Below, one piece after another: positions 45,087-64,000 of a DNA stretch of 64,000 nt. A model generated the notes under the pieces. It was not told where the DNA came from and did no database searches. It saw only the letters and a program-made list of their open reading frames with translations. This DNA comes from a virus (lineage: Duplodnaviria > Heunggongvirae > Uroviricota > Caudoviricetes): the IMG/VR virus record IMGVR_UViG_3300017917_003366; one strand, written 5' to 3'. The position numbers and the translations under genes are program-made. The first letter of the stretch is position 1. Every line of letters begins with the position of its first letter.

Positions 45087-46067
45087 TTAAATTGGACTCC
45101 ATATACCTGAAGCAGATGACAATGACCTTGGAGCATCTGCAATGGCAACTGCACTATCGGTATCGTAATAAACTTTATCGCTAAATGCGTTTTGATTTAA
45201 AATAGTTTGGTATCCACCTGCTAAGTAACCATGGTTTTGTCCCATAACTCCTGTGTTCTCACAGTTTGGTATGGACTGACTTCCATAATTCATTGTCCAA
45301 GTAGATATTATATTTCTATATTGACGTAAACTATTATCAATATGTGAACTTACACTTGTAAGGTAAAATTTACCTTTTTTACTGTTTACTCCCTTTTCGA
45401 GGGAATTGCCGGGTAATCCTAAACTACCAGGGGAATTTGTTGTTGGTTGGACTCTCCACGTTTCACTAGCAAATGGATATATTCTTGTTTGGTTCGCACC
45501 TGACTGATAATGATATCCATATTCTCTATCAAACCACCCAACTGAGTGGTCTGCGGTTCCAATATTTGCATCAGTTGTATTTGTGAACGTGTCGGTGGCA
45601 AAGGTTAAAATATCATAACCCGTGGAACCATTACCACAAGTATATGCTTTAGTTCCGAATGGAACACCTGTTGATTCATAACCAACTCCTTGTTGAATTG
45701 TTGATGGTGAACCCCCACAATAACCTCTGTTACCAATTGTGGTCATCACTTCTGTAGCCAAATTTATTTTATCATTTCCACAATACCCATTTTGATTATT
45801 TAGAAAATAATAACCGTGAGTATGGGCAGATGCCCAACCACCATATTTGTTTGGGTAACTTAAAGTACTTGAGCTTGTTCCCCAAGCGTCGGTGGCATAT
45901 TTTAATGTGGTTATTGCTGTCCAAACAGAACTTCCAATATAACCACCACCAATAAGTCCGCGAATTAGAATTAAACCAAGTTCATAATGGTCATCACGCA
46001 AGGTCTTTATGTCACGACCTTGTACTGTAAGATTTCCGGTGAAATTGATGTTACCATTAACTTTCAT
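45087..46067 (-). CDS. Putative receptor-binding/tail-fibre protein, paralog A (326 aa)
   Basis: MKVNGNINFTGNLTV... followed by about 6 blocks with GY..GG / TDxW periodicity. Ends NHGYLAGGY...YDTDSAVAIADAPRSLSSASGIWS. Confidence 0.5.
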   Translation of the reverse strand: MKVNGNINFTGNLTVQGRDIKTLRDDHYELGLILIRGLIGGGYIGSSVWTAITTLKYATDAWGTSSSTLSYPNKYGGWASAHTHGYYFLNNQNGYCGNDKINLATEVMTTIGNRGYCGGSPSTIQQGVGYESTGVPFGTKAYTCGNGSTGYDILTFATDTFTNTTDANIGTADHSVGWFDREYGYHYQSGANQTRIYPFASETWRVQPTTNSPGSLGLPGNSLEKGVNSKKGKFYLTSVSSHIDNSLRQYRNIISTWTMNYGSQSIPNCENTGVMGQNHGYLAGGYQTILNQNAFSDKVYYDTDSAVAIADAPRSLSSASGIWSPI

Positions 46068-52000: not shown

Positions 52001-55000
52001 AGTTGATAGCGAAGTTGATGAACCGTTTGATATTCCAAAATAGAAGTTACTTCCATTATGTCCCATCGACCAATTATGGTTAGTTCCCGCATTACCACCA
52101 ATACCGGTTGTAACACCCCAACCACCATCACCAATACCACCCGCAACAACTCTATTTGAAAATGAGTTTGGATTTATACCTGTACTGTTCGCAAGAATTG
52201 CATTTGAATTATTGGTTAATCCTGTTGTTGTTAATCCTCCATTAAATGATACCGCAGTGGTTGTACTTGCACCTCTCGAGGTTACTGTGGCCAACGTATC
52301 GGTTTCGGAATATGATTCTAAGTATCTACCATCTAAATCAACGGTGTATGTTCCACCATCATTTCTTGTAAATGTAACAACACCATTTCCGATATTGAAT
52401 GTTGCACCTGTTGTAAAGTTGTTAGTGTCAGTAACGGTTTCAGTTGCCGTAGTGATACCTGTGATATGTCCAAATGAATCAAGAAGGATGTCTTGAATGT
52501 AAGTTCTTCCGGAGTTATTTGATGAACTTGCAGCACTTACCGAAGGGTGCGCAGTTAAATAAGTGTTACTATCTAATGTACCGTCACCTTTAACAAACTG
52601 AGAGGATGATGCACCTTGAGTGATGAATGATGCGGCAGTTATTGGTAGGGAGGTTATACCATTTCTAGAAACAACATCTTCTAAAGTATCCACTTCAGTA
52701 TATGATGTTAAGAATCTTCCATCAATATCTACCGTAAATGTACCGCCACCATTATTATTGGTGAACGTAATAACACCATTACTTGTATTAAATGTTGCAC
52801 CCGTTGTAAACGTATCTGTTACAGTTTCAGTTGCCGTAGTTATACCAGTAATGTGACCGAATGAATCAAGAAGAATATCTTGGATATACGTTCTACCACT
52901 ATTGTTAGAAGAACTTGCGGCACTCACTGAAGGGTGAGCGGTTAAGTATCTACCTTCTAAACTTATGTCAATATTTCCACCGTCGTTTCTTGTTAATCTT
53001 AGATTACCCGTGCCGGTATTAAACGTTCCACCTGTTACATAGTAATTCGTGTTATCTAAGAAAGCAGATAAATCAATATCACCACTAAAGGCACCACCTG
53101 TACCTGTGAATCTTAATGTTGTTCCAAGTAAAACGACATTATTAATAAAATCGTTTGTGTCAACAACTGTTTCAGTTGCTGTAGTTATTCCTGTAATGTG
53201 TCCAAAACCATCTAAAAGAATGTCTTGAATGTAAGTTCTGCCTGAGTTGTTTGATGAACTTGCAGCAGTCACAGAAGGGTGTGCGGTTAAGTATCCACTA
53301 TCGTTGGTAAACATCGAAATGTTACCTGTTACATTCTGTAAAACTCTACCGTTAGATAAAACTAATGTTCCCCCAACATAAAGTGCTGAGTTAACAAGGT
53401 CGAACTCGGTACCTCCTCTAATAATAAGTGGGTACTTATCAAATGCCGGTCCTTGATAATCATCGACATGGAAAACGAATCTATCGTTTGTTGTTGCGTT
53501 ATCTCTTAATTGGAAAACAAAATCAATACTATCTGAAGATGGTTGAATTGCGTAAATTCTAGCACCGTCATTATTTAATGTCCAATCGAAACCTTTACCA
53601 CTTGTTGGGAATGTTCCTGCTAAGTCAACGAAAGTTAAATCGGCAGCATTACCTAACGTAACATTTCCATTAAATGTTACAGGAGTTGCGGTTGATGCGC
53701 CTCTTGCAGTAACGGTTGCTAATGTATCTGTTTCACTAAATGATGTCAGGTAAGTGTTACTATCTAATGTACCATCACCTTTAACAAACTGAGAAGATGT
53801 TCCACCTGAAGTTATGAACTTAGGTGCTGTTAAGTTACCCGTCATCGTGTCACCACTCTTAGAAACTTTGTTTCCAATTGCAGTTGCGATTGTTGTCGCA
53901 AAGTTCGGGTCATCACCAAGTGCCGCCGCCAACTCATTTAATGTGTCAAGAGTTGTTGGTGCAGAATCCACCAAGTTCGCAATCTGAGTAGAAACATAAC
54001 CTGAAATACTTGCGGTATATGTACCACCATCACTCTTAGTGAATGTGATTAAACCTGTTGTACTATTTGTTGTACCACCGGTTGTATATGTGTCAACAAC
54101 GGTTTCGGTTGCTGTTGTAATTCCTGTAATATGACCAAAACTATCTAATAAGATATCTTGGATGTATGTACGTCCACTATTGTTCGACGAACTTGCCGCA
54201 GATACCGATGGGTGAGCAGTTAAATAACGACCCTCCAAATCAACATCTATTGTTCCTCCATCGTTACGAGTTAAACGTAGATTACCCGTACCGGTATTAA
54301 ACGTACCACCTGTTACATAGTAATCGGTAGATGATGTTCCGTATCTACCATCCAAATCAACGGTATATGTTAATCCGTTATTCTTTGTAAAGGTTAAAAC
54401 ACCATCACCTGTATTGAAGGTAACACCCGTAGTGTGTGTATCCACAACAGTTTCTGTTGCGGTTGTTATTCCCGTGATGTGACCGAAAACGTCAAGTAAA
54501 ATATCTTGGATGTATGTTCTTCCACTATTGTTCGAAGAAGACGCCGCAGATATTGTTTGGTGTAAACTATCAAATACCACAGTATTGGTACCCGGCATTA
54601 ACGTTATGTTCATGTTACCACCTTCTTGAAGTGTAACTGTTTCATTAAAGTTAATGTCTTCAGATGTTGTACCGTCGGTTAATCTCCAAGAACCATTTAA
54701 TGCAGTTGCGATAGAACTACTAACAGCACTGTATCCTGTTGTCCCTGTGATATTAATTTGGGCAGAACCCGAAACTAATGACGGAGCATTTTGAATATAT
54801 GAGTAATCAATTGAACCACTGATTCCGCTTGTTACTTTTAACGAACCAGTGATTTCGGTGTTACTGATTATTTTTACTTTACTACCATCATCATAGATGT
54901 TAGAGTTGTCCAAGTGGTCACCCCCAACAGATTTAGGTATTCTTGTACTTGTTAAACCCAATTCATCACCAAGAGAACCTGTGTTTCTTGGACCCGAAAG

Positions 55001-56188
55001 TAACATACCGCCCGAGTACATACTACCCGATGCGTTTTGATAAATCCAGTGATTATTTAATGAATCCCATAAAAGAGATGCGGTTGCTAAATGTGAGTTT
55101 GAACCCGAATCGAATACCACTAAACCACCAAATCTTTCAATTGGTTCAAATACGTTTGTATAAATGAATGGACCTGTTAAGTTTAGGTTTGATGATGTAA
55201 CATACACAAATGATGAGGTACCAAGTACACTAATGTTTTGTGTAATTGTAATCGAACCACTGATAATCTGATTACCATTGATTGTTTGTGAACCTGAGAT
55301 ATCTAATGAACCTGTTAATTGGTATGAACCCGAAAGTGATTTTGTATTTGCCCAAACACTTCCACTTCTCATTAATAAATCACCATGTGATAAACTTCCT
55401 GTGTCGATTCTAACATTATGGAGTTCGTCGATTTCGTAACCGTTATCGACCTTAACAAAAATGGACCCGACGTTTGCATGCGCTCTAACAACATAACCAA
55501 TAATAACGGTGTGTTGGGGCGCTTGTGGTTTTATGTTTGTAATCCTCCCCGCAACTGTCGGCGATAGGTATAACATATCACCATCATTCCACAATTCTCC
55601 TTGTAACGCACCGGTGGTATTGATGTTTCTTACCAATCCATTTGCGGTGATAAACCCTTCTTGGTTATCATCTATATTTTCGGTGGCAAGACCTAAAGTT
55701 TCCGCCGAGTTGTCGTCATTATCGGCTTGTGCTAATTTTACCTTTATTCTATTTCCTTGTGCCCCAAATATTTTAACCGCATTATATGTAGATTCGAGTA
55801 AATTAACACCTGATTTGTTTACCACCCTTACTAATTGTTCTTGTCCAACTTGAAGGGTTACGTTTCCACCTTTCATCCCGATATCGACAGTTCCGTCGGT
55901 ATCGTTCCATGTCATTCTACCAATACCACCGACAACTGTTGAACCTGTATTAAAATCAATATAATCTGTGCGCAGAACACCTGTTAGTGAACCACTAATA
56001 GAACCGGTAACGTTTAAACTACCCGTTACTGTATGAGTATCAGTTATTTGGTCACCAACTTTAGCGTTCCCATGAACAGTTAATGAACCCGTTACGGTTT
56101 GAGAACCACTTACGGTGACTCCACCTTTAAAATTGGATGAACCCGATACTTGTAACGACCCCGTTACGTCTGCGTCAAATATTCTCAT
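46067..56188 (-). CDS. Giant tail-fibre/tail-spike-like structural protein (3373 aa) with internal tandem domain repeats and a C-terminal intramolecular-chaperone (peptidase S74) domain
   Basis: N-terminal Gly/Ser/Thr-rich beta-helix-like repeats (VTGSLQVSGSSNFKGGVTVSGSQTVTGSLTV). Five near-identical about 40-aa units (LTAHPSVSAASSSNNSGRTYIQDILLDSFGHITGITTATETV). Many copies of TGATFNTSNGVITFTRNDGGTYTVDIDG(R/K)Y. The C-terminal roughly 120 aa match the Peptidase_S74 auto-cleaving chaperone consensus and end in a coiled coil (full aligned motif in the finding at 46067-56188). ATG verified at 56188. Confidence 0.8.
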   Translation of the reverse strand: MRIFDADVTGSLQVSGSSNFKGGVTVSGSQTVTGSLTVHGNAKVGDQITDTHTVTGSLNVTGSISGSLTGVLRTDYIDFNTGSTVVGGIGRMTWNDTDGTVDIGMKGGNVTLQVGQEQLVRVVNKSGVNLLESTYNAVKIFGAQGNRIKVKLAQADNDDNSAETLGLATENIDDNQEGFITANGLVRNINTTGALQGELWNDGDMLYLSPTVAGRITNIKPQAPQHTVIIGYVVRAHANVGSIFVKVDNGYEIDELHNVRIDTGSLSHGDLLMRSGSVWANTKSLSGSYQLTGSLDISGSQTINGNQIISGSITITQNISVLGTSSFVYVTSSNLNLTGPFIYTNVFEPIERFGGLVVFDSGSNSHLATASLLWDSLNNHWIYQNASGSMYSGGMLLSGPRNTGSLGDELGLTSTRIPKSVGGDHLDNSNIYDDGSKVKIISNTEITGSLKVTSGISGSIDYSYIQNAPSLVSGSAQINITGTTGYSAVSSSIATALNGSWRLTDGTTSEDINFNETVTLQEGGNMNITLMPGTNTVVFDSLHQTISAASSSNNSGRTYIQDILLDVFGHITGITTATETVVDTHTTGVTFNTGDGVLTFTKNNGLTYTVDLDGRYGTSSTDYYVTGGTFNTGTGNLRLTRNDGGTIDVDLEGRYLTAHPSVSAASSSNNSGRTYIQDILLDSFGHITGITTATETVVDTYTTGGTTNSTTGLITFTKSDGGTYTASISGYVSTQIANLVDSAPTTLDTLNELAAALGDDPNFATTIATAIGNKVSKSGDTMTGNLTAPKFITSGGTSSQFVKGDGTLDSNTYLTSFSETDTLATVTARGASTATPVTFNGNVTLGNAADLTFVDLAGTFPTSGKGFDWTLNNDGARIYAIQPSSDSIDFVFQLRDNATTNDRFVFHVDDYQGPAFDKYPLIIRGGTEFDLVNSALYVGGTLVLSNGRVLQNVTGNISMFTNDSGYLTAHPSVTAASSSNNSGRTYIQDILLDGFGHITGITTATETVVDTNDFINNVVLLGTTLRFTGTGGAFSGDIDLSAFLDNTNYYVTGGTFNTGTGNLRLTRNDGGNIDISLEGRYLTAHPSVSAASSSNNSGRTYIQDILLDSFGHITGITTATETVTDTFTTGATFNTSNGVITFTNNNGGGTFTVDIDGRFLTSYTEVDTLEDVVSRNGITSLPITAASFITQGASSSQFVKGDGTLDSNTYLTAHPSVSAASSSNNSGRTYIQDILLDSFGHITGITTATETVTDTNNFTTGATFNIGNGVVTFTRNDGGTYTVDLDGRYLESYSETDTLATVTSRGASTTTAVSFNGGLTTTGLTNNSNAILANSTGINPNSFSNRVVAGGIGDGGWGVTTGIGGNAGTNHNWSMGHNGSNFYFGISNGSSTSLSTWMQVSPSRVITLNGYTSNGFLKTSSSDGTLTVDTTSYYPSSNPSGYISSYLNYYTTGATFNTSNGVITFSRNDGNTYTVDIDGKYAESVHTHDDRYLPYAKTSDVNRAAGWYTIAANPGNRAVGRFILRDTSSGNHQSVVFYATHHYGNYSDITVLINSRYSGNPFRTLRIVDGSTYDGALLQVYIDDSSCQVQAWMLENIQNQGWVIKDWVADGVDPGDINNFPALTEVPAQVDLDQAPQGGIITTGPIYGGGDTTQYEYLNTNNYSTTTDTRYYTETEIGNFFGGSTAITGYNKTNWDTAFGWGNHSGQGYATTGYVQTQITNLIDSAPAALDTLNELAAALGDDANFATTITTSIGNKVSKSGDTMTGNLTFGTTSGLGVFWGMNTDAAFIRFVSTGNGAGLSYLEIGTQDDSDEPIWFTQSGNLRAYIATDGFFKNGSGYKYLYENGTWGINISGNAATVTDGVYTTGTYSNPAWITALAGSKITGNISGNASNITSYTINQNLGTTDSPTFNNVTATGVYGTNASSTRNKYNVYSNSGTYAIGMESGNNFGGLADWAMTFQMNNDDDRGFWWGDDGHNTSQGAMSLTTNGYLTVARGVRVGYGESDTTSPSVPLQVYGSGSLVFDVQGSLGQLFSVTDTLSGSLFSVNDISGLPVLEVFSDDRVVMGSFGMNSLVVSGTTTTVSGSLLTSGSFAHIGTATINGGTVWHSNNDGSGSGLDADTLDGYHASSFLTSYSETDTLATVTARGASTSTAVTFSGGFNDGYITFNLAQINRSSGYVELQYSSGGGVRMFGAGATPITFDTTGTGIFSSSVTASSFVKSGGSSSQFLMADGSVSTNPGWITSYVDTNYYVTSASFNTGNGIITLTRNDGGTVTVDIDGRYKSVNGQTEVNVASPASTSGTWTTATSNDEWGNPKFDTAFNSYTYGDAGAWIQFNIPSGMKSAWISQLCWSSGGYVDIHGIQTGGALVFLRRINTRQTVENTDEGVNHDGSTVTFVASGLDDYTAIRFTVQVGRFHLTGLSFSDSDNEGTEGVGMVHPAQISHQGSGSTLDADLLDGQHGSYYYPASNPNGYITSYVDTNYYTTSASFNTSNGIITFSRNDGGTYTVDIDGKYQEAGTYLGAISYNNDSNSTYQLLWGSGNAVYGTAGVYVNPSSDYVYAGSFVSSGWFRSTGNTGWYSETYGGGWYMTDTTWIRNYNSKQVYIDSLLEIGTGGIQNAGNWRILNSAGSGWANIIERNSGAPLFYGSTYYDFDNTTYFLNPASTSNLATVKLNSTASGTEVFTVDGVNGRLFTITDDLSDSLFSVNTIAGVPVIEAFSDYRVIMGRYNQNDFYIATTGEIGMGNTSVSGYKLAVTGNIRATAFVKTGGSSSQFLMADGSVSTNPGWITSYTDTNYYVTSASFNTSNGIITLTRNDGGTVTVDIDGKYAESSHTHDDRYFTETESDARFQPLENQRVSTSSTVRFSNTYTTAWFRNDNSNTGLYNETTTMHLSSQSNGFWDVSSTNSESSIRFYTGGHVNALRGYVYANSSNQIGFLNSGGNWGLRMDNSYNVQIFGALTVGSGTSSDIYMTDTDETTRRIHCNSSRIGFLSSSNTWGSWAANDGSWNSDQSVRAPIFYDISDTNYYLNPNGYSNLGTVRFNSSGANAEVVAVDGVNGRLFTVTDDMTDSIFSVNTISGLPVIEAFADYTVVMGRFGQNDFKIDGSTGAVTIRGNTVWHAGNDGASSGLDADLLDGQHGSYYQPASSAITTSNIGSQSVNYATSAGSASQVTINYNNDSNSTYQVLWGSGNSVYGTGGVYVNPYYDYMYATAFVSSIFGLQDGTPMDCYMQITDNNPTEDGINYGAEFFFYGDQSTSSSHLYFGGALIYNNLVVNGRITENSSIRYKKDIVQIENGLEKVLQLSGVTYTKINNEQKEAGVIAEEVAKILPEAVGFDTEGRPDSVSYGRLTALLIEAIKDLKKEIDELKGNK
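47704..49545 (-). repeat. Pair of long near-identical coding repeats (about 200 nt) at 47704-47899 and 49344-49545, plus diverged copies of the same about 30-aa motif elsewhere in the gene
   Basis: Both encode ...FVK(S/T)GGSSSQFLMADGSVSTNPGWITSY(V/T)DTNYYVTSASFNT(G/S)NGIITLTRNDGGTVTVDIDG(R/K)Y with about 90% nucleotide identity. Confidence 0.65.
52425..54565 (-). repeat. Five near-identical coding repeats (about 120 nt core, period about 340-390 nt) within the giant fibre gene
   Basis: Plus-strand cores near 52425-52560, 52830-52945, 53170-53290, 54090-54215 and 54455-54565 all encode ...SAASSSNNSGRTYIQDILLD(S/G/V)FGHITGITTATETV. Confidence 0.7.
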
Positions 56189-56283
56189 GTAAAGTTCTTA
56201 TTATTTTTATAGATAAATACTTCAAAACCCCAATCTTTATTCCTTTAAAAGTTATTTATTGATAGTATATTCTATAAATATGT

Positions 56284-56736
56284 ATGATACGACACACACT
56301 GGTCAAAGATGACCTAATTCATATCGAAAATTCTGAGGTTTTTGTAAAAGAAATTTTTGAGGTTACAAATTGTGATATTCAAACCACAATCGACAACTTT
56401 AATTCACTTTACGAGTGGGATAAAATGTTCAATGTGGAAGAAACGGCAAGAAGATTTGAGGAAAACCACCGTTTTTTTATTTTTTATCACAAAGATTTGG
56501 TGGTTGGACATTGTTGGGTTGACCCCGTATCAATGAATGAATCTAATATATATGTATATAATGTTTTTGTTGACAAAACAAAACATGATAAGGATGTGTG
56601 TGATAGCACCGTTTATTTCTCTAAACTTGCCACGATGTTATTTTCTGAAGGTTATAAGGTAATCCACGCAGATGTGGATGATTGGCACAAAAAATCCCAA
56701 TCCTTTTGTCAAAGATTGGGATTCAAATCTATTTAG
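56284..56736 (+). CDS. Plus-strand hypothetical protein (150 aa), possibly GNAT-like acetyltransferase
   Basis: Lone plus-strand gene between the fibre gene start and a convergent gene. The C-terminal ...DDWHKKSQSFCQRLGFKSI resembles the GNAT C-terminal helix. Weak. Confidence 0.3.
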   Translation: MIRHTLVKDDLIHIENSEVFVKEIFEVTNCDIQTTIDNFNSLYEWDKMFNVEETARRFEENHRFFIFYHKDLVVGHCWVDPVSMNESNIYVYNVFVDKTKHDKDVCDSTVYFSKLATMLFSEGYKVIHADVDDWHKKSQSFCQRLGFKSI

Positions 56737-56890
56737 AATAGATTAACTCAAGTGTTTATCTTTAATTTTTTGAATTACTGTGTTAAACAAATTATTAATC
56801 ACAACCTTATCGGTCGTCGTTGTTTTTTTTACTATTGGAGTTTTTTCAACTCTTGTAAATTGTCTATTTTTATTATTTTCTGTATTCATA

Positions 56891-58540
56891 TTAAGTATTT
56901 TTAGAATTATTACAAAATGGACATGGTTCACCGCCAGAAAAAACTGGATTAGGGTTTTCGGGGTCATATGGTTCAGAAATACAACAAACCACCTCATTAC
57001 AATAAGGTGCACCTAAACCCAAACCATAACACTCCTCCGCATTAAATCCTGTATATAAATCGGGAAAATCACAAGGTATATCACATCTCCAATACATCAT
57101 GTATCCAGGATACCAACATCTACATACCGGTGCATTGTGTTGGATAATAAAATAATTTGGTGATTGTGTAGACTCGTCCATGGTTAAATATAAATCGATG
57201 TCCTCTACGTCAATCGAATATACATTTTCTCTTGAATACGTGTAGTGTTCAGAAACAACCGCAGATGTTTCAAAAAGATTTGTATTCTTATTTACTATTA
57301 CAAATTCGTCACCTAATTCTACTTTGGAGAATGGAACAAATATTAATATTTCATTTCGTTTTATTAAAACTAATGAGGTATCAACATCAGAAAATTTTAA
57401 ACCATTTTCTAATGTGAGGTATCTAATCCATACGGATGCGTTGATTGTTACAATTGATTGTATGGTTGTTGACGAAATTGTACTAGCGGAAAAAACTTCT
57501 TCTGTATTTCCTGAATATTGTAATGGCTCAAACTCACTTTCATTGTCAGGTAGACCAAACAATTTAATTGTTTTTAAAGAATCATTCAATGATAACTGTG
57601 ATGGCGAAACTAATGTCCCATCATTTTTGAGGATTAAATTAGTACTATCGGAATTGTATTCAATACCATCGTATCTTTTACCATATTTCTGCAAATATTT
57701 CGGTCTTTCCCATACTTGTATTTCGGTATTGATAGTATCAACAGTATTATCAATACTACATGAATTGGTGTGGATAAACGGGTCAATTAAATTAATAACA
57801 TTTAATTCACTACCATAAACTAAACCAATACTTCTATATGTTTTTAATTTACCATTTTCCAAATCATTAGTGTTTATCACATATTCTTGTAATAATGTAT
57901 TTGGGGGTAAATTAGTTTTTAAATCACTTAACTGCTCCTGAGTTTCTATCTTATAAACTTTTGGGTATTCAGAGTAATCTGTGGTTGGATATCGTTGTTT
58001 AACAATATAATTTGGGTAATTACCGTTATCTTTCAAACTGTCCCCAATCATATCAAATCCAAATGTTGAATGATTTATGTACGTTTTAACAATTGAATTT
58101 GGGGAAGAATCATATAAAAGTTTTAGAAATTCAAAATTATCTTTAGCATATGTTTCATCAATCAATGCCGTGGAGTCATATGATTGTCTTATAATTAATT
58201 TATTTGGGGAATCTACTGTTGATGGTGTTACTTGGTTCTTACTGTCCACTACTTGTTTTGTAATTGTTAAACCACTGTAGTATTTGTCGAACATTGCCCC
58301 AATACCCTTTATTGTATCATTGGGGTAGTCACTATTAATTGCATAAACCGGTCCCGCATTTAATAATATTAACTCTATTTCGGTGATATTATTTTCAGAT
58401 ATTAGATTATCTAATTCAGTTTTATTAAAATATGGTTCAATTGATATGGGGGCTGCGACGATTCCTGTGTTTATTTCTAAAACTTTAAAGGAATTATCGA
58501 CATCCTTAACAAAATCAATTGCTATTAAAACACTTCTCAT
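56891..58540 (-). CDS. Hypothetical protein (549 aa) with a Cys-rich C-terminal module
   Basis: C-terminal ...CRCWYPGYMMYWRCDIPCDFPDLYTGFNAEECYGLGLGAPYCNEVVCCISEPYDPENPNPVFSGGEPCPFCNN (12 Cys in about 75 aa). N-terminal VLIAIDFVKDVDNSFKVLEINTG resembles the C-terminal subdomain motif of ATP-grasp enzymes. ATGA-coupled to the upstream Cys-rich gene. Confidence 0.5.
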   Translation of the reverse strand: MRSVLIAIDFVKDVDNSFKVLEINTGIVAAPISIEPYFNKTELDNLISENNITEIELILLNAGPVYAINSDYPNDTIKGIGAMFDKYYSGLTITKQVVDSKNQVTPSTVDSPNKLIIRQSYDSTALIDETYAKDNFEFLKLLYDSSPNSIVKTYINHSTFGFDMIGDSLKDNGNYPNYIVKQRYPTTDYSEYPKVYKIETQEQLSDLKTNLPPNTLLQEYVINTNDLENGKLKTYRSIGLVYGSELNVINLIDPFIHTNSCSIDNTVDTINTEIQVWERPKYLQKYGKRYDGIEYNSDSTNLILKNDGTLVSPSQLSLNDSLKTIKLFGLPDNESEFEPLQYSGNTEEVFSASTISSTTIQSIVTINASVWIRYLTLENGLKFSDVDTSLVLIKRNEILIFVPFSKVELGDEFVIVNKNTNLFETSAVVSEHYTYSRENVYSIDVEDIDLYLTMDESTQSPNYFIIQHNAPVCRCWYPGYMMYWRCDIPCDFPDLYTGFNAEECYGLGLGAPYCNEVVCCISEPYDPENPNPVFSGGEPCPFCNNSKNT

Positions 58541-58809
58541 ATTAAAGTTTTTTCACTCTTAGGTAAATATAAGTCCCCATCAACTTCGGACCATTTTTTT
58601 AAAGGACACGGATTATTTGATTTGGTATAAACTTTTTTACCTATAGGACAACCACACTCCCCACAAAAAGCCGACCATTTTTGATTAAAAATCTTTTTCA
58701 TTGAGGGACAAGTTTCACAAATAGAGGTTCGTTTGTCCGCCAATTCTTTTTCTTGTGGTGTTGGGTTAAATGATGATGCCCAAGCAGTTACAATTTCTTT
58801 TACATCCAT
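58537..58809 (-). CDS. Small Cys-rich protein (90 aa)
   Basis: CETCP...FCGECGCPIGKK...NPCP (7 Cys; a zinc-binding-like spacing). Confidence 0.45.
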   Translation of the reverse strand: MDVKEIVTAWASSFNPTPQEKELADKRTSICETCPSMKKIFNQKWSAFCGECGCPIGKKVYTKSNNPCPLKKWSEVDGDLYLPKSEKTLI

Positions 58810-58971
58810 ATCTTATTAGATAAATAGTTACTTATCAAAGTATACGGAAAAAACATTAATGATTGTAGATAAACGGGTCCCTTTTTTTGAGCTCCTCAAG
58901 TTTCTTTTTGAATCTCTTCTTCCTCTGTCTTTCTTCCCAAAGACTCTTAACCCAACCTATAATTTTCTTAA

Positions 58972-60642
58972 TCATACCTTTCTTATTAAATAGTTCCCCA
59001 TGACAAGTATATCCATTTCCGTATCTAAAAATGTGTCCATAGCATCTTGTGGGGTCAATACCATAGTTTTATCCTTGACATTGAAGGATGTGTTTAAAAG
59101 GATTGGGTATCCACTATAATTCTCATACTCCTTCAATAACCTATAGATTGGATTGAAGGGGGTTACAGATTGGATTCTTGCCGTTCCATCAACGTGGGTG
59201 ATTGATGGTAGTTTATCTCTGTATTTTTCTTTAACCTTAACAACCTGATTCATATATGGTACAAATCCACTGTATTCAAAATACTTCTTTTGGTCCTCAA
59301 AGGTTACCATCGGAGCAAAGGGTCTGAATCCTTCTCTCTTCTTAATTACCTTATTGATTTTGTCCTTCATATTGGGTAATGTTGGGTTGGCAAGTATTGA
59401 CCGATTACCCAAAGCCCTTGCTCCGAACTCTATATTACCTTGAAACCACCCAACGACCTTACCTGACATGATTTCTTCTGAAACTCTTCTGTTTAAATTG
59501 GTGGTAAGTTGATATTTCCTGAAGTTGATTCCGGTTGTTTTATTTAAAACTTTAAGAATGTCGACTTCAGTATAATCGGGACCAAGAAATGCATCCGTGT
59601 GAATTCTAATTGGTCGTTTTTTTGTGTGAAAGTAATTTAAACACGTACCGATACAAGAACCCGCATCTGATGGCGCTGGTGGAATCCATAATCTTTTGAA
59701 ATCGGTATTATCTAAAATCTTACCATTAGCAGTACCGTTATAAGCACAACCACCACCCAACGCAAGATTGGTTGAATCGGTAAACAATTGAATATCTCTT
59801 AATACCTCAAACAGTATTGATTCGTATTTCTCTTGAACCGTTGCAGCAATGTCCATATGGTCCTGAGTTATTGGTTCTTCGGGTAATCTGTTTTCAATTC
59901 CCATTAATTCAATCAATTCCTCATTAAACATCAAGCAATCCCTATCCCATGAGAAATAAACCATGTTGGTTTTAAGTGATGCACAATTATGTGCAATCAG
60001 TTGGTTAATCTTATCACGATATTTTTCAGGGTTACCGTAAGGTGCCAATCCCATTAATTTGTATTCACCTTCGTTTGGTTTAAAACCAATAAACGATGTC
60101 ATTGCCGAATAGAATAAACCTACCGAGTGTGGGTAAACACATAATGGAACAATTTTAAATTCACCCTTATTAATGTACCCAACTGACATTGTTTCCCATT
60201 CACCAACACCATCTACTGATAAAATAACCGCATCATTAAATGGGGAAGAATAATATGAATAGAATATGTGCGAATCGTGATGATTCGAAAAGAAAACGTT
60301 ATCTGATATTTTTTTTAATTCTCTCCTTAATTTCCAATGATTAATTTTTGTTTTGATGAAGTTTTTTGACACTTCAACAGGACACTCTAAGAAATTTTTA
60401 AAGAATGTATTATTAACTCTATCGGATTTTAATTGTGGATTTTCATAGAAACAAACCGATTCAATTTCGTTTCTTTTGATATGATACTTGTCAAAAATGT
60501 ATTTTAATGCATTGACCGGAAATCTATTATCATGTTTTATACCTGTGAATTTTTCTTCTTCGCAAGCAAAAACCAATTGACCCTTCTTGAAGAGACAAAC
60601 TGATGAGTCATGATAATATGCTGATATTCCAATTACGTACAT
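58972..60642 (-). CDS. Carbamoyltransferase, NodU/CmcH (TobZ-like) family
   Basis: N-terminal MYVIGISAYYHDSSVCLFKKGQLVFACEEEKFTGIKHDNRFP matches the family signature (ILGIS..YHDSAAAL...AAQEERFSR.KHD). The length (556 aa) is typical. Confidence 0.8.
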   Translation of the reverse strand: MYVIGISAYYHDSSVCLFKKGQLVFACEEEKFTGIKHDNRFPVNALKYIFDKYHIKRNEIESVCFYENPQLKSDRVNNTFFKNFLECPVEVSKNFIKTKINHWKLRRELKKISDNVFFSNHHDSHIFYSYYSSPFNDAVILSVDGVGEWETMSVGYINKGEFKIVPLCVYPHSVGLFYSAMTSFIGFKPNEGEYKLMGLAPYGNPEKYRDKINQLIAHNCASLKTNMVYFSWDRDCLMFNEELIELMGIENRLPEEPITQDHMDIAATVQEKYESILFEVLRDIQLFTDSTNLALGGGCAYNGTANGKILDNTDFKRLWIPPAPSDAGSCIGTCLNYFHTKKRPIRIHTDAFLGPDYTEVDILKVLNKTTGINFRKYQLTTNLNRRVSEEIMSGKVVGWFQGNIEFGARALGNRSILANPTLPNMKDKINKVIKKREGFRPFAPMVTFEDQKKYFEYSGFVPYMNQVVKVKEKYRDKLPSITHVDGTARIQSVTPFNPIYRLLKEYENYSGYPILLNTSFNVKDKTMVLTPQDAMDTFLDTEMDILVMGNYLIRKV

Positions 60643-61778
60643 TATTTCTTTGAACCATAGTAGATTGTGTCTTTATTAATTCTTTCTCTCCAAGGGTCCA
60701 AAACCACACTTCCACTCGGGAAGATAGTATCATTAAAAACATTTCTATGTCCTAATAAATAAATAGCAGGACCATTTATTTCATCGTACCTAACCTCATT
60801 AATGAAACTACCTATAAGAATGGAATAAGAACCATCAATATATTCGACACCGGGTTTATAGCTCTTACCCATAATAACCACAGATAAACCATGTTCAATA
60901 GATAAATCAATTAATCGATTGGCAATGTTTCTTGCTTGTTTTTCCCTTGATGTCATAATCGCATCAAATAAATCATAACCCAAGCCCAATCTTTGTGCCA
61001 TATATCTCAATGCAATATTATCACGTGGGTGACAAGAACCTCCGTCTCCCATCCCCGCTTTCATATAAGCCGGTCCCATGATTCTATATGTACTTCTTTC
61101 AAGTGCACCGGTCACCACATCAGTATTCATATTTCCATTTAATTCAGCCACATCTTGAATCATATTGACAATTGAAATCTTTGCCGATATAAATGTGTTG
61201 TAGAATATTTTAATCGCCTCAGCATCATCCCATGTACCGATTTCATATCTTGTTTGTGGTGATATAATTGTTTGATAGAAATCCTTTAAGATTTTAGCGT
61301 CAGTTGTTTCTGAACCATCTTCTGTACCAATAATCACCATCTCAGGATTAACCATATCGTTTTTAACGGTACCCATCGCAATTAGATATGGATTATAGAT
61401 GAACCTATAGTTTTCAACCAACGGAATAAACTCCCTACGAGTAGTACCAGGTAAAACTGTGGATATTAAAACAACTAGCTGTTGCTTGTTAGTATATTGA
61501 TTGATTTCTGAAAGTATGTTTTTAACTATACTGTAATCAAAATCCTTTGGTGGTAGATGTGATGTTGGTTGTTTACCGTCATATAATGGGTCGTGGGGAG
61601 TAGGTACAGCAATAAAGATTAAATCTTTATCCTTACACACTTCCTCAATTGTACTCACCATATTAAAATTACCTGGCGTAACATTATTCACATCATAACC
61701 TTCAACAAAATGTTTTTCTGCCATGACCTCGGAAACCTCTTTACCAAGTTTTCCAACACCAATAAATCCTATTTTCAT
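60642..61778 (-). CDS. Nucleotide-sugar dehydrogenase (UDP-glucose/GDP-mannose dehydrogenase family)
   Basis: N-terminal Rossmann MKIGFIGVGKLG and catalytic-Cys motif GMGDGGSCHPRDNIAL (family GxGGxCxPKD). Confidence 0.7.
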   Translation of the reverse strand: MKIGFIGVGKLGKEVSEVMAEKHFVEGYDVNNVTPGNFNMVSTIEEVCKDKDLIFIAVPTPHDPLYDGKQPTSHLPPKDFDYSIVKNILSEINQYTNKQQLVVLISTVLPGTTRREFIPLVENYRFIYNPYLIAMGTVKNDMVNPEMVIIGTEDGSETTDAKILKDFYQTIISPQTRYEIGTWDDAEAIKIFYNTFISAKISIVNMIQDVAELNGNMNTDVVTGALERSTYRIMGPAYMKAGMGDGGSCHPRDNIALRYMAQRLGLGYDLFDAIMTSREKQARNIANRLIDLSIEHGLSVVIMGKSYKPGVEYIDGSYSILIGSFINEVRYDEINGPAIYLLGHRNVFNDTIFPSGSVVLDPWRERINKDTIYYGSKK

Positions 61779-62563
61779 AAATAAATCTTCTTTGTTAATT
61801 TTCTATTTACCAAATCATTATGTTCATTTTTAAAAAAAATTTCACACTCATTCATTGTTTTTATTTTGTCAATATTTGATTCTATTTTTAATACATCATT
61901 TTCGGTGATTTTTAAATCAATATCCATGTGTTTCAATAACACATCTCTAATCCATTTATAATGACTAATCGGTCTTGGGTGATAGTCATCTGCTCCTTTA
62001 TCCCATTTTTTGGTTGTCACCCAAAAATTACCTCTATATAGATACGAATGAAAATCTTGTAAATGTAAATTCACATTTGATTGAGTTATTTTAACTAAAG
62101 AATTTAACTCATTTGATAATTTGAAATTTTCAAAGTAATTACCGTAATTTTCATATAAATTATTTACAGAACCAAATAGGTATTTAACATTTTTCTTATC
62201 TAAAAAATCTTTAATTAGAGTAATTGAATACATTGATTTAAAAATTAAACCATCAATTGTATATAACTCATTTTCATATTTTGATAGTGATGAGCTAGTT
62301 ACTTGCCCAAATTCTCCCCACTCTGAATTATTTGAAATAATTAAATCCCATCGAATTGGTGTGGTAAACAAAATAATAATAGTATCATTCTGATTAAGTT
62401 TATATTTTCTATCCGTTTCTAACAATCGATATAATATCGATTCATTTCCCGAACCCCTAATACCAACATTATGTCCTTCGTTTCCATATAGAATCATGTC
62501 TGCCCATGTCGGCCAAACATATTCCGTAAAACTACAACCGAATGTGAATATTCTATCTGCCAT
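61775..62563 (-). CDS. SGNH/GDSL-like hydrolase candidate (paralog 1)
   Basis: N-terminal IFTFGCSFTEY (GDS-like block I) and GIRGSGNES. Confidence 0.4.
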   Translation of the reverse strand: MADRIFTFGCSFTEYVWPTWADMILYGNEGHNVGIRGSGNESILYRLLETDRKYKLNQNDTIIILFTTPIRWDLIISNNSEWGEFGQVTSSSLSKYENELYTIDGLIFKSMYSITLIKDFLDKKNVKYLFGSVNNLYENYGNYFENFKLSNELNSLVKITQSNVNLHLQDFHSYLYRGNFWVTTKKWDKGADDYHPRPISHYKWIRDVLLKHMDIDLKITENDVLKIESNIDKIKTMNECEIFFKNEHNDLVNRKLTKKIYL

Positions 62564-63233
62564 TAATTTTATTTTTTATCAATTCTTTTAATTTATTGTG
62601 ACCCGAAAAACTAGGGTGACTATCCATAAAATATTTTATCGGGTCCTCATCATATACCGTCAATTTATTTGACATGAAATACTCATTTAATGATGTATTT
62701 TTGGGGTTATTAATTGTTGGTAGTTTTATGATGTTTTCATCCTTCTTACTAAATTCATCAAACAAATAAAGAGTATGTATTTTAATGTTTTTATTTTTAA
62801 TTAAAAAATGCATTAAATTAATTGTATCATTATATGTAAAACGGTATCTTTTTGATTGCCATGTTAAAATATAATCAAGTAAAATTTCTATTTCACGGTC
62901 TGTCTTGGTTGAAAAGGGTCCGTCATTTCTTTTAGTGTCAATCCCGAGTTCCGGTAAACCGGTACTTGAGAAGTAGCTGTCATCTGTATCGTCATCAAAG
63001 AACCCAATTCTATTAAATCCTGTGAATTGGTATAATACAATGTCCCCGTCTTTAAGATTATTTAAGTTCTGATTAAACCTATAGAACAATATGTCATTTG
63101 ATGCACCAGCAGATGATAAATTTTTAATGTTATAATTTAACTCTTTAGCTAATAAGTTACCGTATGTACTTTCTTGTGGTACGCCGGAGTGTCCTGATGA
63201 AAAAGAACAACCAAAAACCCAAATAGTATTCAT
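62553..63233 (-). CDS. SGNH/GDSL-like hydrolase candidate (paralog 2)
   Basis: N-terminal IWVFGCSFSSGHSG and SSAGASNDIL (GxND block III-like). Paralogous to the upstream gene. Confidence 0.4.
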   Translation of the reverse strand: MNTIWVFGCSFSSGHSGVPQESTYGNLLAKELNYNIKNLSSAGASNDILFYRFNQNLNNLKDGDIVLYQFTGFNRIGFFDDDTDDSYFSSTGLPELGIDTKRNDGPFSTKTDREIEILLDYILTWQSKRYRFTYNDTINLMHFLIKNKNIKIHTLYLFDEFSKKDENIIKLPTINNPKNTSLNEYFMSNKLTVYDEDPIKYFMDSHPSFSGHNKLKELIKNKINGR

Positions 63234-64000
63234 ATAATTTTATTAAATGTTTTAAACTCAAATAACTTATTTAAAAAATTATTTAAATCAGTTAATTCAA
63301 AGAATTTATTATAATTATGCACCAAAACATCTGTCATTTCTTCCCTAATCTTATATAACTCCGATACATTCATTTTTGATATGTCTTCACATAGTTTAAT
63401 AACCATATCCAATCTTCTTTCAAAATTAACTTCAGTATCATAGCTTTCGTCTATCCATTTATCAAATGTTTTAAATCCAATTGTTTTTAGGTATTTTAAT
63501 GCGTTTGGATTCCCATAAATTATGAATGGTTGTTTGGCGATAATAGGTTTGTAAGTCTTTTCAGAAAAGAACAAATTATCAGAGTTGACATTTGTTTCCG
63601 AAACTAAAGAGATAAATGTTTTATGATGCATAAAATAATCAAAATCGTCTGCCTGATTTAACTCTAAATTTTTGTCATCGACGTTGATTTCAAATTCCAT
63701 TGTTTGAAAAAATTCATTTATTTTTTTCGCCCTATCAATATTTTTTATCTTTTCAGAAAAGTTATGTATGGTATAATGAAACTTATTTGTTGTTCCACCA
63801 TAAGATAATATAATGTTATTTAGTATTGTTGGGTTATTTAAAATTTCATAAACCAGTATTTTTCTATGGACATGGGGTCTTCGATTATAACAAAGGATTT
63901 TCTTTTCGATTGTTGCATCGTTTTTTGGAATCACCGGTGGTTTATCCTTGTTAATAAACCATGGGTAATCTAAAAAATAATTGTACGATAGATATGAAAA
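63230..64000 (-). CDS. Hypothetical protein, 5'-partial (the ORF continues past the right edge of the window)
   Basis: The reading frame stays open from 63934 to 64000 (...FSYLSYNYFLDYPWFINKDKPPV-IPKNDAT...). The track's GTG start at 63934 is therefore unlikely. Confidence 0.45.
   Translation of the reverse strand, partial: FSYLSYNYFLDYPWFINKDKPPVIPKNDATIEKKILCYNRRPHVHRKILVYEILNNPTILNNIILSYGGTTNKFHYTIHNFSEKIKNIDRAKKINEFFQTMEFEINVDDKNLELNQADDFDYFMHHKTFISLVSETNVNSDNLFFSEKTYKPIIAKQPFIIYGNPNALKYLKTIGFKTFDKWIDESYDTEVNFERRLDMVIKLCEDISKMNVSELYKIREEMTDVLVHNYNKFFELTDLNNFLNKLFEFKTFNKII

Follow-up and report, generated by a model that had tools for sequence, protein, structure and literature searches.

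A packed phage gene array interpreted as a sugar-tailoring module beside a putative ATP-grasp/Hint device

Beside the giant tail-fibre gene of an uncultured marine phage, we find a tightly packed series of minus-strand genes that reaches the end of the window, the 64,000-nucleotide stretch of DNA analyzed here. We judge it reasonably probable that this array comprises two modules, one for sugar tailoring (58856-64000 and beyond) and one that is a device built from the proteins A549 and B90 (56743-58809). The first matches known enzyme families, while the second centers on a protein that, according to its structure model, is a fusion of an ATP-grasp domain and a Hint (hedgehog/intein) domain.

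Layout of the array

The genes form a single co-directional run from about 3.3 kb past the window edge down to position 56743, followed by the giant tail-fibre gene. Because neighboring genes overlap (by 4, 11, 4, 1, and 4 nt) or nearly abut (one gap of 46 nt and one of 1 nt), we treat them as one packed array. Each has homologues on other contigs, so none is a chance ORF. All seven minus-strand ORFs of the original prediction lie where it had placed them, and the motifs it quoted were found in D378, F226, E262, and B90. It had overlooked two small conserved minus-strand ORFs, S39 and S48, and a plus-strand GNAT gene (56284-56736). Close relatives of the phage sit on contigs of 245-320 kb. Part of the conservation of gene neighborhoods may be inherited synteny instead of functional linkage.

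A549 and its partner B90

The 549-aa protein A549 (56891-58540, minus strand) was modeled with AF2 at a pLDDT of 82, with lower values (50-80) in the tail. Residues 1 to ~295 (57656-58540) adopt a circularly permuted, acid-amine ligase-like ATP-grasp fold in the model. Structure and conservation identify residues ~296-469 (57134-57655) as a Hint domain with blocks F and G only. Residues 470-549 and the stop codon (56891-57133) make up a Cys-rich tail, the putative released cargo. This tail was first described as a 12-Cys module; we counted 10 cysteines (473, 475, 486, 490, 504, 514, 519, 520, 540, and 543) and 11 in the whole protein. Three of them, C473, C490, and C543, are invariant in the A2 set.

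Reading the sequence alone could not have revealed the fusion. Pfam gave no match on 67 A549 members, neither domain being detectable by sequence; hhalign against a real intein was not significant, nor was any match to PF07591. The permuted ATP-grasp ligases (glutathionylspermidine synthetase, eukaryotic glutathione synthetase, YgiC, and the 3n6x/3k1t type) have no detectable sequence similarity to A549. The family, which occurs almost only on viral contigs, retains D9, E22, and N24 in 250 of 250 members, and the two domains were nearly always matched together across 482 representatives. A full-text literature search, judged on titles and abstracts, returned no ATP-grasp/Hint fusion, and the combination of ATP-grasp, Hint, and Cys-rich tail appears undescribed.

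From these folds and conserved residues we infer both a cleavage and a ligation. The Hint domain has lost its N-terminal nucleophile and kept a His-Asn pair, and its most likely action would be cyclisation of Asn469, which would free the 80-residue Cys-rich tail. A-type bacterial intein-like (BIL) domains and the pretoxin-HINT domains of polymorphic toxins resemble it in their Hint fold, conserved C-terminal His-Asn, lack of a +1 nucleophile, and hypervariable C-terminal region that differs between relatives, and C-terminal cleavage by Asn is the documented activity of A-type BILs (PMC7765530). The A549 domain differs from them in lacking both the N-terminal Cys/Ser and TxxH, and in that the domain preceding it is an ATP-grasp enzyme, whereas theirs serves secretion or forms filaments.

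The main competing account, which we regard as unlikely, is that the Hint domain is a dead scaffold and A549 a plain ATP-grasp enzyme whose C-terminal domain is stabilised by Zn or disulfides, with no cleavage taking place. Blocks A and B, which carry the N-terminal nucleophile and TxxH, are missing from all family members, and some members lack the His-Asn pair or stop at the Hint domain, which counts against cleavage. Of 227 members, only 16 have a nucleophile directly after His-Asn and 43 have proline; since Asn cyclisation proceeds poorly when proline is the leaving group, this also counts against cleavage. The dead-scaffold account is opposed by the retention of the catalytic positions: within the A2 set Asn469 never varies and 63 of 67 members have His468, the His-Asn pair occurs in 227 of ~240 members of the wider set, and block F (DVExxD) is kept despite overall identities of 25-40%. 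It is also opposed by the sequence that follows His-Asn, which is swapped wholesale between lineages: 182 tails are Cys-rich, 28 carry extra canonical Hint domains, which are self-processing, and 4 have fibre-chaperone-like ends. Such wholesale replacement is what one sees for cargo that is released, and a conserved His-Asn with polymorphic tails speaks for a functional Hint domain.

The closest associate of A549 is B90 (58537-58809, minus strand), a small zinc-ribbon-like protein with six cysteines (CETCP...CGECGCP). A B90 homologue lies within 2.8 kb of A549 on the same strand, just upstream or just downstream, in 57 of 57 A549 loci from 33 lineages, making it an obligate neighbor. B90 matches PHROG 13558, a family of unknown function (2.9e-9), and a search of 50,697 phage records found no homologue. 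Its C-terminus, ...K[TS][ILF][IL], is kept in the homologues adjoining A549 and is absent from two second-copy paralogues. Following release of the tail, the ATP-grasp domain of A549 would join a carboxylate to an amine, on B90 or with its help. In the LysW/LysX and RimK/S6 systems, an ATP-grasp ligase acts at the C-terminus of a small carrier protein, in part a zinc ribbon. The C-terminus of B90 is basic and hydrophobic (…KTLI) rather than acidic and there is no sequence relationship, leaving the parallel as analogy only.

Two further genes recur beside this pair. S48 (56743-56889, minus strand; translation confirmed), a conserved 48-aa ORF directly 3' of A549, is found in 21 of 33 A549 lineages and keeps its C-terminal ...IQKIKDKHLS. 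H150 (56284-56736, plus strand), between the array and the fibre gene, is a GNAT acetyltransferase (PF00583, 1.6e-4, 22.4 bits against a cut-off of 20.7). In 23 of 33 lineages a GNAT of its cluster is found close to A549, mostly on the same strand; in the window it is on the opposite one.

Probable sugar-tailoring enzymes

C556 (58972-60642, minus strand) is an O-carbamoyltransferase of the TobZ/NodU/CmcH family. It matches PF02543 (1.4e-65) and PF16861 (3.2e-63) far above their curated cut-offs, PHROG 1601 at 1.4e-118, and, among PDB sequences, NovN (1e-86), GdmN (1e-79), and TobZ (~1e-63), and it contains the motifs NHHDSH, VDGVGE, PSDAGS, and KKREGFRPFAP. With TobZ, NovN, GdmN, and NodU it shares both full-length Pfam domains and the metal- and nucleotide-binding motifs, though it is not a NodU equivalog (143.6 bits against a 1000-bit cut-off). 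It differs from these proteins in being phage-encoded and in always being followed by S39 (58856-58975, minus strand), a basic, conserved 39-aa ORF that overlaps its stop codon. By tblastn, S39 lies directly 3' of the carbamoyltransferase in nine loci at 64-90% identity (L004-L007, L030, L045, L049, L055, and L056). A carbamoyltransferase in a phage had been thought unusual; instead, 148 phage records hold one, PHROG 1601 is named for it, and a Nol-like carbamoyltransferase was catalogued for cyanophages in 2010 (PMC3037559). C556 would convert carbamoyl phosphate and ATP to carbamoyl-AMP and pass the carbamoyl group to a sugar hydroxyl.

D378 (60642-61778, minus strand) is a divergent NDP-sugar 6-dehydrogenase of the UDPG/GDP-mannose dehydrogenase family, with matches to PF00984 (2.9e-17) and PF03721 (9.2e-17) far over the curated cut-offs and to PHROG 9148 (2e-94). 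Its GGSCHPRD, at residue 246, aligns with GGSCFQKD of human UGDH, catalytic Cys to catalytic Cys. It scores 150.9 bits against TIGR03026, the NCBIfam nucleotide-sugar dehydrogenase model, under the 189.8 cut-off, and Pfam found no C-terminal UDP-binding domain in it. The predicted reaction is oxidation of a nucleotide-hexose at C6 to a uronic acid via Cys249. The profile searches bear out both enzyme calls of the original prediction.

The two proteins encoded upstream had been described as SGNH-like paralogues with GCSF/GxND motifs. F226 (62553-63233, minus strand) has an SGNH fold in its structure model with invariant Ser, Asn, and His (GCSFS, GASND, DSHP), pointing to a Ser/His esterase or acyltransferase. 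It matches the CE2/CE3 acetyl-xylan esterases, PatB/OatA, and phage G7C gp63.1 in fold and in the conserved Ser/Gly/Asn/His positions, but block I reads GCSF instead of GDSL, block V is DxH instead of DxxH, and it has neither a signal peptide nor a fibre domain. It goes undetected by the GDSL models of Pfam. E262 (61775-62563, minus strand) is a remote paralogue: its profile-profile comparison with the F family gave a probability of 96.2% (E 2.4e-9) across 84 columns at the N-terminus. It has 54 metagenomic homologues. Its invariant residues are G9, C10, S11, G37, H195, and P196. The described homology and the fold of F226 stand, while the strict GxND does not extend to E262, whose motifs are GCSFT, GSGNE, and DDYHP. 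Acting in the cytoplasm, the two proteins may add or remove O-acyl groups via the Ser-His pair.

The cluster had been said to run off the window, and sugar genes do continue beyond position 64000. Gene G (63230-64000, minus strand) has no in-frame stop up to base 64000 and is therefore partial in the window, which holds its C-terminal 256 codons. Contig L065, 98.7% identical to the window, encodes the full 394-aa protein. G matched no Pfam, NCBIfam, or PDB profile, and its homologues in 12 of 33 related lineages often overlap an SGNH-like gene. Beyond the rest of G, L065 encodes an N_Twi radical SAM protein of the twitch type (NF033640, 352 bits against a cut-off of 170) and a GT7+LamG protein; these would be further members of the sugar module. 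In the related lineages L004/L063 and L006, the stretch beyond the edge also includes a second GT7-LamG, a GT2, a methyltransferase, and a gene resembling APS kinase.

Given the enzyme-family matches and these additional genes, the sugar-tailoring reading holds at the enzyme-family level for the stretch from 58856 onward, which we interpret as tailoring a putative sugar substrate. Several observations count against it: D378 falls short of the TIGR03026 cut-off and gave no Pfam match for a C-terminal UDP-binding domain, the best solved relatives of C556 (NovN, GdmN, and TobZ) tailor antibiotics, not polysaccharides, and the ORFs scanned across the window gave no match to lipid-carrier priming transferase, flippase, or polymerase families that would help a glycan reach the envelope.

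One pathway or two modules

The Cys-rich proteins had originally been grouped with sugar tailoring, and this part did not stand: A549 and B90 are a strictly linked pair of their own, found in many gene contexts, with a dehydrogenase in only 3 of 33 lineages and a carbamoyltransferase in 12. The rarity of the dehydrogenase weighs against a sugar-pathway role for A549, which we consider improbable, in which its ATP-grasp domain would amidate the uronic-acid carboxylate made by D378, replacing a NadE-like amidotransferase, with the Hint domain and tail as a structural or regulatory appendage. In its favor, capsule synthesis is known to employ ATP-grasp amidoligases that act on glucuronate, and in two cultured phages, Synechococcus phage Bellamy and Pelagibacter phage HTVC008M, the orthologous dehydrogenase has a NadE-like gene beside it; this array has none, and an acid-amine-ligase-like fold lies two genes downstream. 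Yet the invariant partner of A549 is B90 rather than a sugar enzyme, and its His-Asn and tails favor a functional Hint domain.

It is equally doubtful that the whole array makes one modified peptide or small molecule, its precursor being the A549 tail (or B90, S39, or S48), released by the Hint domain and decorated by the radical SAM, ATP-grasp, GNAT, SGNH, carbamoyltransferase, and sugar enzymes. This would fit the single packed co-directional unit, the antibiotic-tailoring relatives of C556, the twitch-domain radical SAM protein upstream, a tryptophan halogenase 17 kb away, and the recurrence near A549 of 2OG-Fe(II) oxygenases (19/33 lineages), GNAT (23/33), SGNH-like (20/33), and carbamoyltransferase (12/33) genes. 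However, of the 33 lineages with A549 and B90, 30 have no dehydrogenase beside the pair and 21 no carbamoyltransferase, and Bellamy and HTVC008M have the dehydrogenase-carbamoyltransferase pair without A549 or B90. Since the recurrent neighbors (Hsp20 and the 2OG oxygenases) belong to the stock gene set of marine T4-like phages, inheritance may account for the synteny near A549.

DNA modification, also offered originally, is the most improbable reading; C556 would O-carbamoylate a hydroxymethyl pyrimidine in phage DNA, or D378 would supply a uronic acid attached to it. Bacillus phage SP-15, whose DNA reportedly carries a sugar/uronate-modified base, has a distant UGDH homologue, and at 24191-25408 the window has a gene for a thymidylate-synthase homologue whose length, 405 aa, is unusual. 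This homologue, however, is 33.5 kb away, scores 2.2e-91 as an ordinary ThyA, and keeps LPPCH and PFNIAS, with Asn as in dUMP-specific enzymes instead of the Asp of dCMP-hydroxymethylases. Experiments have established a phage-borne 5hmC carbamoyltransferase belonging to the same two Pfam families (Yang et al. 2021, eLife; PMC8670742), but C556 is only 24% identical to it (81 bits, against 295 for NovN and 272 for GdmN), has no dCMP-hydroxymethylase-type thymidylate-synthase homologue adjacent, and has only sugar enzymes as neighbors rather than nucleotide metabolism, the situation of the glycosyltransferase-flanked carbamoyltransferases on unmodified contigs (Yang et al., PMC8670742).

The sugar module resembles what marine T4-like phages carry in their "LPS" clusters (P-SSM2, S-SSM7, Bellamy gp223-228, and HTVC008M gp160-162). 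These clusters hold a Nol-like carbamoyltransferase and a UDP-glucose-dehydrogenase-like gene. D378 is orthologous to their dehydrogenase (60.5% identical to Bellamy gp227 and 53% to HTVC008M gp162); in Bellamy and HTVC008M this lies one to three genes from the carbamoyltransferase, which is of C556's family, among glycosyltransferases, NDP-sugar epimerases, a nucleotidyltransferase, a NadE-like gene, and methyltransferases. The window differs in that its carbamoyltransferase belongs to another subclade (~30% identity), the NadE-like, methyltransferase, and epimerase genes are absent, and the array has the SGNH paralogues, G, the twitch radical SAM, and GT7-LamG instead; here the cluster also adjoins the giant fibre gene, and the related contigs are those of 245-320 kb. 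The sugar module is thus not unusual: ocean phages are already known to carry ordinary gene sets of this kind. An island at 28-36 kb (GT4, GT4, GT2, the UDP-galactopyranose mutase Glf at 3.3e-75, and GT2) may provide the remaining chemistry and transfer steps. As to substrate and acceptor, we infer that the product would be an acidic O-carbamoylated glycan unit, with a polysaccharide of the host envelope or a virion protein, for instance the fibre encoded next to the array, as its candidate acceptor.

A packed minus-strand array beside the fibre gene

The observation behind the original prediction was confirmed by the ORF map: the gene layout agrees, and every motif that had been quoted was found in the translated ORFs. 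All on the minus strand, the genes are A549 (56891-58540), the small B90 (58537-58809), the carbamoyltransferase C556 (58972-60642), the dehydrogenase D378 (60642-61778), the SGNH-like E262 (61775-62563) and F226 (62553-63233), and G, which is partial and extends from 63230 without an in-frame stop before base 64000. Two small conserved ORFs that had been overlooked, S39 (58856-58975) and S48 (56743-56889), lie on the same strand. Since consecutive genes share 1-11 nt or lie no more than 46 nt apart, we treat them as a single packed co-directional array. Next after the array and a plus-strand GNAT acetyltransferase gene (56284-56736) comes the 3373-aa fibre gene (46067-56188).

S39 encodes a strongly basic protein of 39 aa (…WEERQRKKRFKKKLEELKKRDPFIYNH) and overlaps the stop codon of the carbamoyltransferase gene. 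In 9 related loci it lies directly 3' of this carbamoyltransferase clade; its identity there, 64-90%, is in most of them at least that of the carbamoyltransferase itself. S48 encodes 48 aa and starts one base past the A549 stop codon, and its C-terminus (…IQKIKDKHLS) is kept even where A549 identity is only ~40%. GC content is 27.5% in 62001-64000 vs ~34% window-wide, and this low-GC stretch coincides with E262 and the least conserved genes, G and F226. A promoter and terminator scan yielded nothing enriched above shuffles, and no tRNA genes were found within the window. Farther away, at 36263-41081 on the minus strand, are genes for an Asp/Asn beta-hydroxylase-like 2OG oxygenase, a DUF401/CitMHS transporter-like membrane protein (overlapping the beta-hydroxylase-like gene by ~110 nt) and a tryptophan halogenase (PHROG 2928, 6e-108), which are accessory genes typical of marine myoviruses.

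Window positions 56000-64000, searched by megablast, matched none of 50,697 phage records. Exact look-up of the C556 protein returned only a 4.7-kb contig, and that of E262 led to L065 (NCBI JACCDW010701784.1), which matches window 60844-64000 at 98.7% identity and continues for 3.3 kb beyond it. The sugar genes continue there past the window edge. G is 394 aa at full length; before it lies a 460-aa member of the N-terminal-twitch subfamily of radical SAM proteins (L065 1549-2931; NF033640, 352 bits vs a cut-off of 170), and before that a 461-aa fusion of a GT7 (beta-1,4-galactosyltransferase-like) domain with LamG (L065 167-1552).

The closest large relative is L006, a 318-kb contig with the same gene order but without E262, a gene unique to the window's lineage among 58 compared loci. 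Identity between the two is 95% for the dehydrogenase, 91% for the carbamoyltransferase, 92% for B90, 71% for A549, 47% for F226, and 36% for G. L006 also carries two further SGNH-like genes and a protein with a weak DUF6071 hit, which is probably SGNH-like because it clusters with F226. Between its carbamoyltransferase and B90 genes, L006 has an insertion encoding an APS-kinase-like P-loop protein as well as a DUF2061 membrane protein (L006 8738-9169), a hint at sulfation in that lineage. Two other contigs of 310 and 245 kb (L004 and L063) have a second GT7-LamG gene, a GT2-like gene, and a methyltransferase gene upstream. It follows that the right-hand part of the array is hypervariable; the dehydrogenase and carbamoyltransferase, in contrast, are well conserved.

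Enzyme families of the putative sugar-tailoring genes

C556 matches both Pfam carbamoyltransferase domains end to end, the N-terminal Kae1/ASKHA-like PF02543 at residues 3-333 (222.5 bits vs a cut-off of 24; 1.4e-65) and the C-terminal YrdC-like PF16861 at residues 389-555 (212.7 bits vs 27; 3.2e-63). Both profile searches thus score above gathering and bear out the predicted carbamoyltransferase. The protein contains NHHDSH at residue 120, VDGVGE at 143, PSDAGS at 324, and KKREGFRPFAP at 434; we take the functional assignment of its HxxxH/Asp motifs (presumably metal-binding) and of K-x-RE-x-FRPFAP from the TobZ structure. PHROG 1601, “Nol-like carbamoyltransferase,” matches at 1.4e-118, and among proteins of solved structure its sequence is closest to NovN (1e-86), GdmN (1e-79), and TobZ (~1e-63). 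We rejected the narrower assignment as a NodU equivalog, as the score for NF041651 (143.6 bits) is far under its cut-off of 1000. C556 is therefore a predicted O-carbamoyltransferase of the NodU/CmcH/TobZ family. A phage-encoded carbamoyltransferase had been called unusual, but tblastn found one in 148 phage records, mostly from Synechococcus and Prochlorococcus phages but also from pelagiphages and several jumbo phages. Carbamoyltransferases have also been listed among cyanophage genes, as have large “LPS” clusters of unknown role (Sullivan et al. 2010, PMC3037559).

The dehydrogenase call for D378 was likewise upheld, with the NAD-binding domain PF03721 (61.7 bits vs 27) and the central domain PF00984 (63.0 bits vs 25.4) both above their gathering scores. 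GxGxxG is found at residues 4-12, the catalytic Cys lies in GGSC249HPRD, which aligns with GGSCFQKD of human UGDH, and PHROG 9148 matches. The C-terminal UDP-binding PF03720 gave no Pfam hit at E ≤ 0.1; downstream of the central domain there are ~75 residues with GKSYKPG, into which the PDB alignment reaches. E-values against PDB sequences are only ~1e-18, and the score for the nucleotide-sugar dehydrogenase model TIGR03026 is 150.9 bits, under its cut-off of 189.8. By sequence, D378 is a divergent member of the UDP-glucose/GDP-mannose dehydrogenase family.

The sugar-gene context around these two enzymes recurs in related phages. Orthologues of D378 occur in the Synechococcus phage Bellamy (60.5%), the Pelagibacter phage HTVC008M (53%), and one single-virus genome, all three within ~3-4 kb of a Nol-like carbamoyltransferase. 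The annotated Bellamy and HTVC008M clusters also contain glycosyltransferases and methyltransferases, with nucleotide-sugar epimerases, a nucleotidyltransferase, and heptose-pathway genes additionally present in Bellamy, and share only the dehydrogenase and carbamoyltransferase with the present array. Thus, the two genes form a mobile core of phage sugar clusters that travels jointly among cyanophage, pelagiphage, and very large uncultured phages. In the window, a tblastn search for a NadE-like or methyltransferase gene partnering the dehydrogenase found none.

The two paralogous SGNH-like calls are supported by different evidence. F226 is predicted to have an SGNH fold by its structural model, and its 13 homologues share invariant GCS(10)FS, G43-x-x-N46-D47, and D204-x-H206-P motifs (S10, G43, N46, H206); block V is D204-x-H206, not the canonical DxxH spacing. 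E262 has 54 homologues with invariant G9-C10-S11, G37, and H195-P196, and the block III Asn is not invariant among them. The E262 family aligns with the F226 family over the N-terminal half (96% probability, E 2.4e-9). Neither protein has a Pfam hit, GDSL models included, and no signal peptide could be read directly from either sequence. PHROGs, NCBIfam, and Pfam returned nothing for A549, E262, F226, or G, and PDB sequence-profile searches with family alignments of the same four gave no hits or chance hits only. For G, we had considered a GT10-like glycosyltransferase because of its SEKTYKP motif, which no tool supported. Taken together, domain, motif, and alignment evidence leaves the four originally predicted enzymes standing, and we hold these family assignments with high confidence.

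Probable sugar tailoring and candidate acceptors

That these genes serve sugar tailoring is likely and well supported by context. We infer the following scheme from the enzyme families. D378 would oxidise an NDP-hexose to an NDP-uronic acid, C556 would O-carbamoylate a sugar hydroxyl via carbamoyl-AMP, F226 and E262 would edit O-acyl groups, and the radical SAM enzyme and glycosyltransferases would complete and transfer the sugar unit.

The carbamoyltransferase had also been suggested to act on DNA bases, and a phage enzyme that carbamoylates 5hmC does exist (PMC8670742). In that study, it co-occurs with thymidylate-synthase homologues in modified contigs, and in unmodified contigs the carbamoyltransferase is flanked by glycosyltransferases (PMC8670742). 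C556, however, shares 24% identity and 81 bits with the characterised 5hmC enzyme vs 295 bits with NovN. The sole thymidylate-synthase homologue of the window (24191-25408, minus strand; 405 aa, PF00303 2.2e-91) lies 33.5 kb off, the Asn of its PFNIAS motif is of the dUMP-specific type, and the window holds no dCMP-hydroxymethylase-type neighbour. We regard modification of DNA as very improbable. The thymidylate-synthase homologue itself has two sizeable insertions vs ordinary ThyA and keeps LPPCH, PFNIAS, and the C-terminal ...HPTIKAPLSN.

The sugar tailoring may serve either to remodel the host envelope or to glycosylate the virion. An island of GT4, GT4, GT2, UDP-galactopyranose mutase, and GT2 genes is present at 28-36 kb of the window, and Pfam scans of 55 window ORFs detected no priming transferase, flippase, or polymerase families, which gives a weak argument from absence. 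The fibre gene adjoins the array, and glycosyltransferases are fused to lectin-like domains. Sugar clusters with carbamoyltransferase and dehydrogenase genes have been reported from marine myoviruses since 2005-2010. The sugar module is a further case, adds little to them, and is of a kind whose purpose is still unexplained. It offers a compact enzyme set whose product biochemistry could determine.

The ATP-grasp-Hint protein A549 and its partner B90

A549 belongs to a large family that counts 482 representatives at 50% identity and is nearly confined to viral contigs. None of at least 194 metagenomic homologues has a Pfam domain, tblastn found no A549 match in 50,697 phage records, and tblastn of B90 against phage isolates gave no hits. 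Across 185,579 species genomes, A549 had two hits only, both on MAG contigs that are probably mis-binned phage. One of them, a 248-kb contig assigned to a Flavobacteriaceae bin (L061, CBFHJJ010000001.1), probably represents a misplaced phage genome and might hint at the host.

Structural modelling predicts that A549 combines an ATP-grasp fold with a Hint fold, both undetected by current domain libraries. In an alignment of 67 members, Pfam saw neither domain in any; no ATP-grasp model appeared even at E ≤ 1, and the Hint model PF07591 matched only 2 of the 67, at E 0.17. Foldseek of A549 against BFVD returned Hint-domain proteins only (TM ~0.26 of the query); the complete architecture is thus not represented among the viral proteins of that library. 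Three residues, D9, E22, and N24, are invariant in 250/250 members and are predicted to be the ATP-grasp Mg site (Asp ... Glu-x-Asn); their spacing equals that of D257/E270/N272 in E. coli DdlB. The position of this putative site at the N-terminus points to a circular permutation of the ATP-grasp domain.

In the Hint domain, intein block F reads D-V-E446-x-x-D449 and is conserved; all 67 aligned members keep E446 and D449. His468-Asn469 is retained in 227 of ~240 members of the wider set. Between residues 286 and 470, no Cys, Ser, or Thr is conserved at ≥80% and H468 is the only conserved His; the domain neither opens with a conserved block A nucleophile nor has the block B motif TxxH. At +1, A549 has Ala, and only 16 of the 227 members have a nucleophile there. 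Alignment of the family with the Npu DnaE intein by hhalign was not significant, block F alone lining up. We rejected a true intein, as the block A/B and +1 nucleophiles are missing. In the 681-aa members (P0111; L010 8001-10046), an insertion of ~150 residues inside the Hint domain sits at the usual position of the homing endonuclease in inteins.

What follows the His-Asn varies. The tail is Cys-rich in 182 of the 227 members (median length 65 aa), with 10 cysteines in A549 rather than the 12 originally counted. Another 28 tails carry from one to three more Hint domains of the canonical type (CF[IV]AGT...VHN), sometimes together with Cys-rich linkers. A fibre-type chaperone motif closes 4 tails, and a few members stop at the Hint domain. 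Tandem Hint domains of this kind, one to three after the family Hint, are seen in P0208, P0220, P0235, P0244, and P0251; a 35-residue Cys-rich linker between two Hint domains of P0235 could release a peptide with a reactive C-terminus. An invariant processing domain before interchangeable cargo is the pattern of pretoxin-HINT proteins. With A-type BIL domains, which cleave with Asn and do not splice (PMC7765530), A549 has in common the C-terminal His-Asn, the lack of a +1 nucleophile, and the variable region after it. It differs from both groups in its ATP-grasp N-terminal region and in having no N-terminal Cys and no significant PF07591 match. Hint-mediated cleavage in A549 is possible, at somewhat less than even chances.

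B90, a zinc-ribbon-like protein, has a homologue on the same strand within 2.8 kb of A549 in 57/57 loci (33 lineages at 80% identity), either directly upstream or directly downstream. Copies adjoining A549 conserve the six Cys positions and a C-terminus ...K[TS][ILF][IL], from which two second-copy paralogues diverge. In these adjoining copies of the family (58537-58809 in the window; loci L002-L060), the protein ends in basic residues followed by [TS][ILF][IL]-COOH; a 209-aa protein downstream of A549 in L006, unrelated to B90, ends likewise (…KNTKLI). Other neighbours of A549 among the 33 lineages are GNAT (23), S48 3' of the gene (21), SGNH-like genes (20), 2OG-Fe(II) oxygenases (19), Hsp20 (17), G-like genes (12), and the carbamoyltransferase with S39 (12). 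Part of this neighbourhood is probably inherited synteny of marine T4-like phages. Because the bond between B90 and A549 survives changes of order and context, it is the only linkage that we treat as functional. The dehydrogenase is near A549 in only 3 of the 33 lineages, and the two Cys-rich proteins, originally listed alongside the sugar cluster, belong to a separate module. The original interpretation is partly supported: what stands is the sugar-tailoring enzyme families and their context, without the unusual carbamoyltransferase, the DNA bases, or the Cys-rich pair.

Here, as for the sugar enzymes, we infer the chemistry from folds, motifs, and linkage. Cyclisation of Asn469 would free the Cys-rich tail, and the permuted ATP-grasp domain would link a carboxylate to an amine as an amide, B90 being its partner or its substrate. 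We are less confident in the ligation partner than in Hint cleavage. Tentatively, and with real doubt about the whole, we propose that A549 and B90 are an undescribed, virus-restricted device comprising a ligase, a Hint-released cargo, and ligation onto the B90 C-terminal carboxylate. The cargo would be Cys-rich in most lineages and elsewhere several canonical Hint domains in a row, joined by Cys-rich linkers, which could in principle give peptide thioesters or cyclic peptides; the ligase would join this cargo or another amine to the conserved carboxylate. Such a device would be an enzyme-coupled system of intein-type processing and ligation in ocean phages, encoded in a fibre-proximal variable region.

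Known parts are joined into a new architecture in the ATP-grasp-Hint-cargo protein and its obligate small partner, and this is the main reason that the locus deserves follow-up. It combines acyl-phosphate ligation and intein-type self-cleavage, each of which is used in protein and peptide engineering. If both cleavage and ligation occur, the family would be a new natural means of releasing or conjugating Cys-rich peptides in phage infection and a possible source of new self-processing tags.
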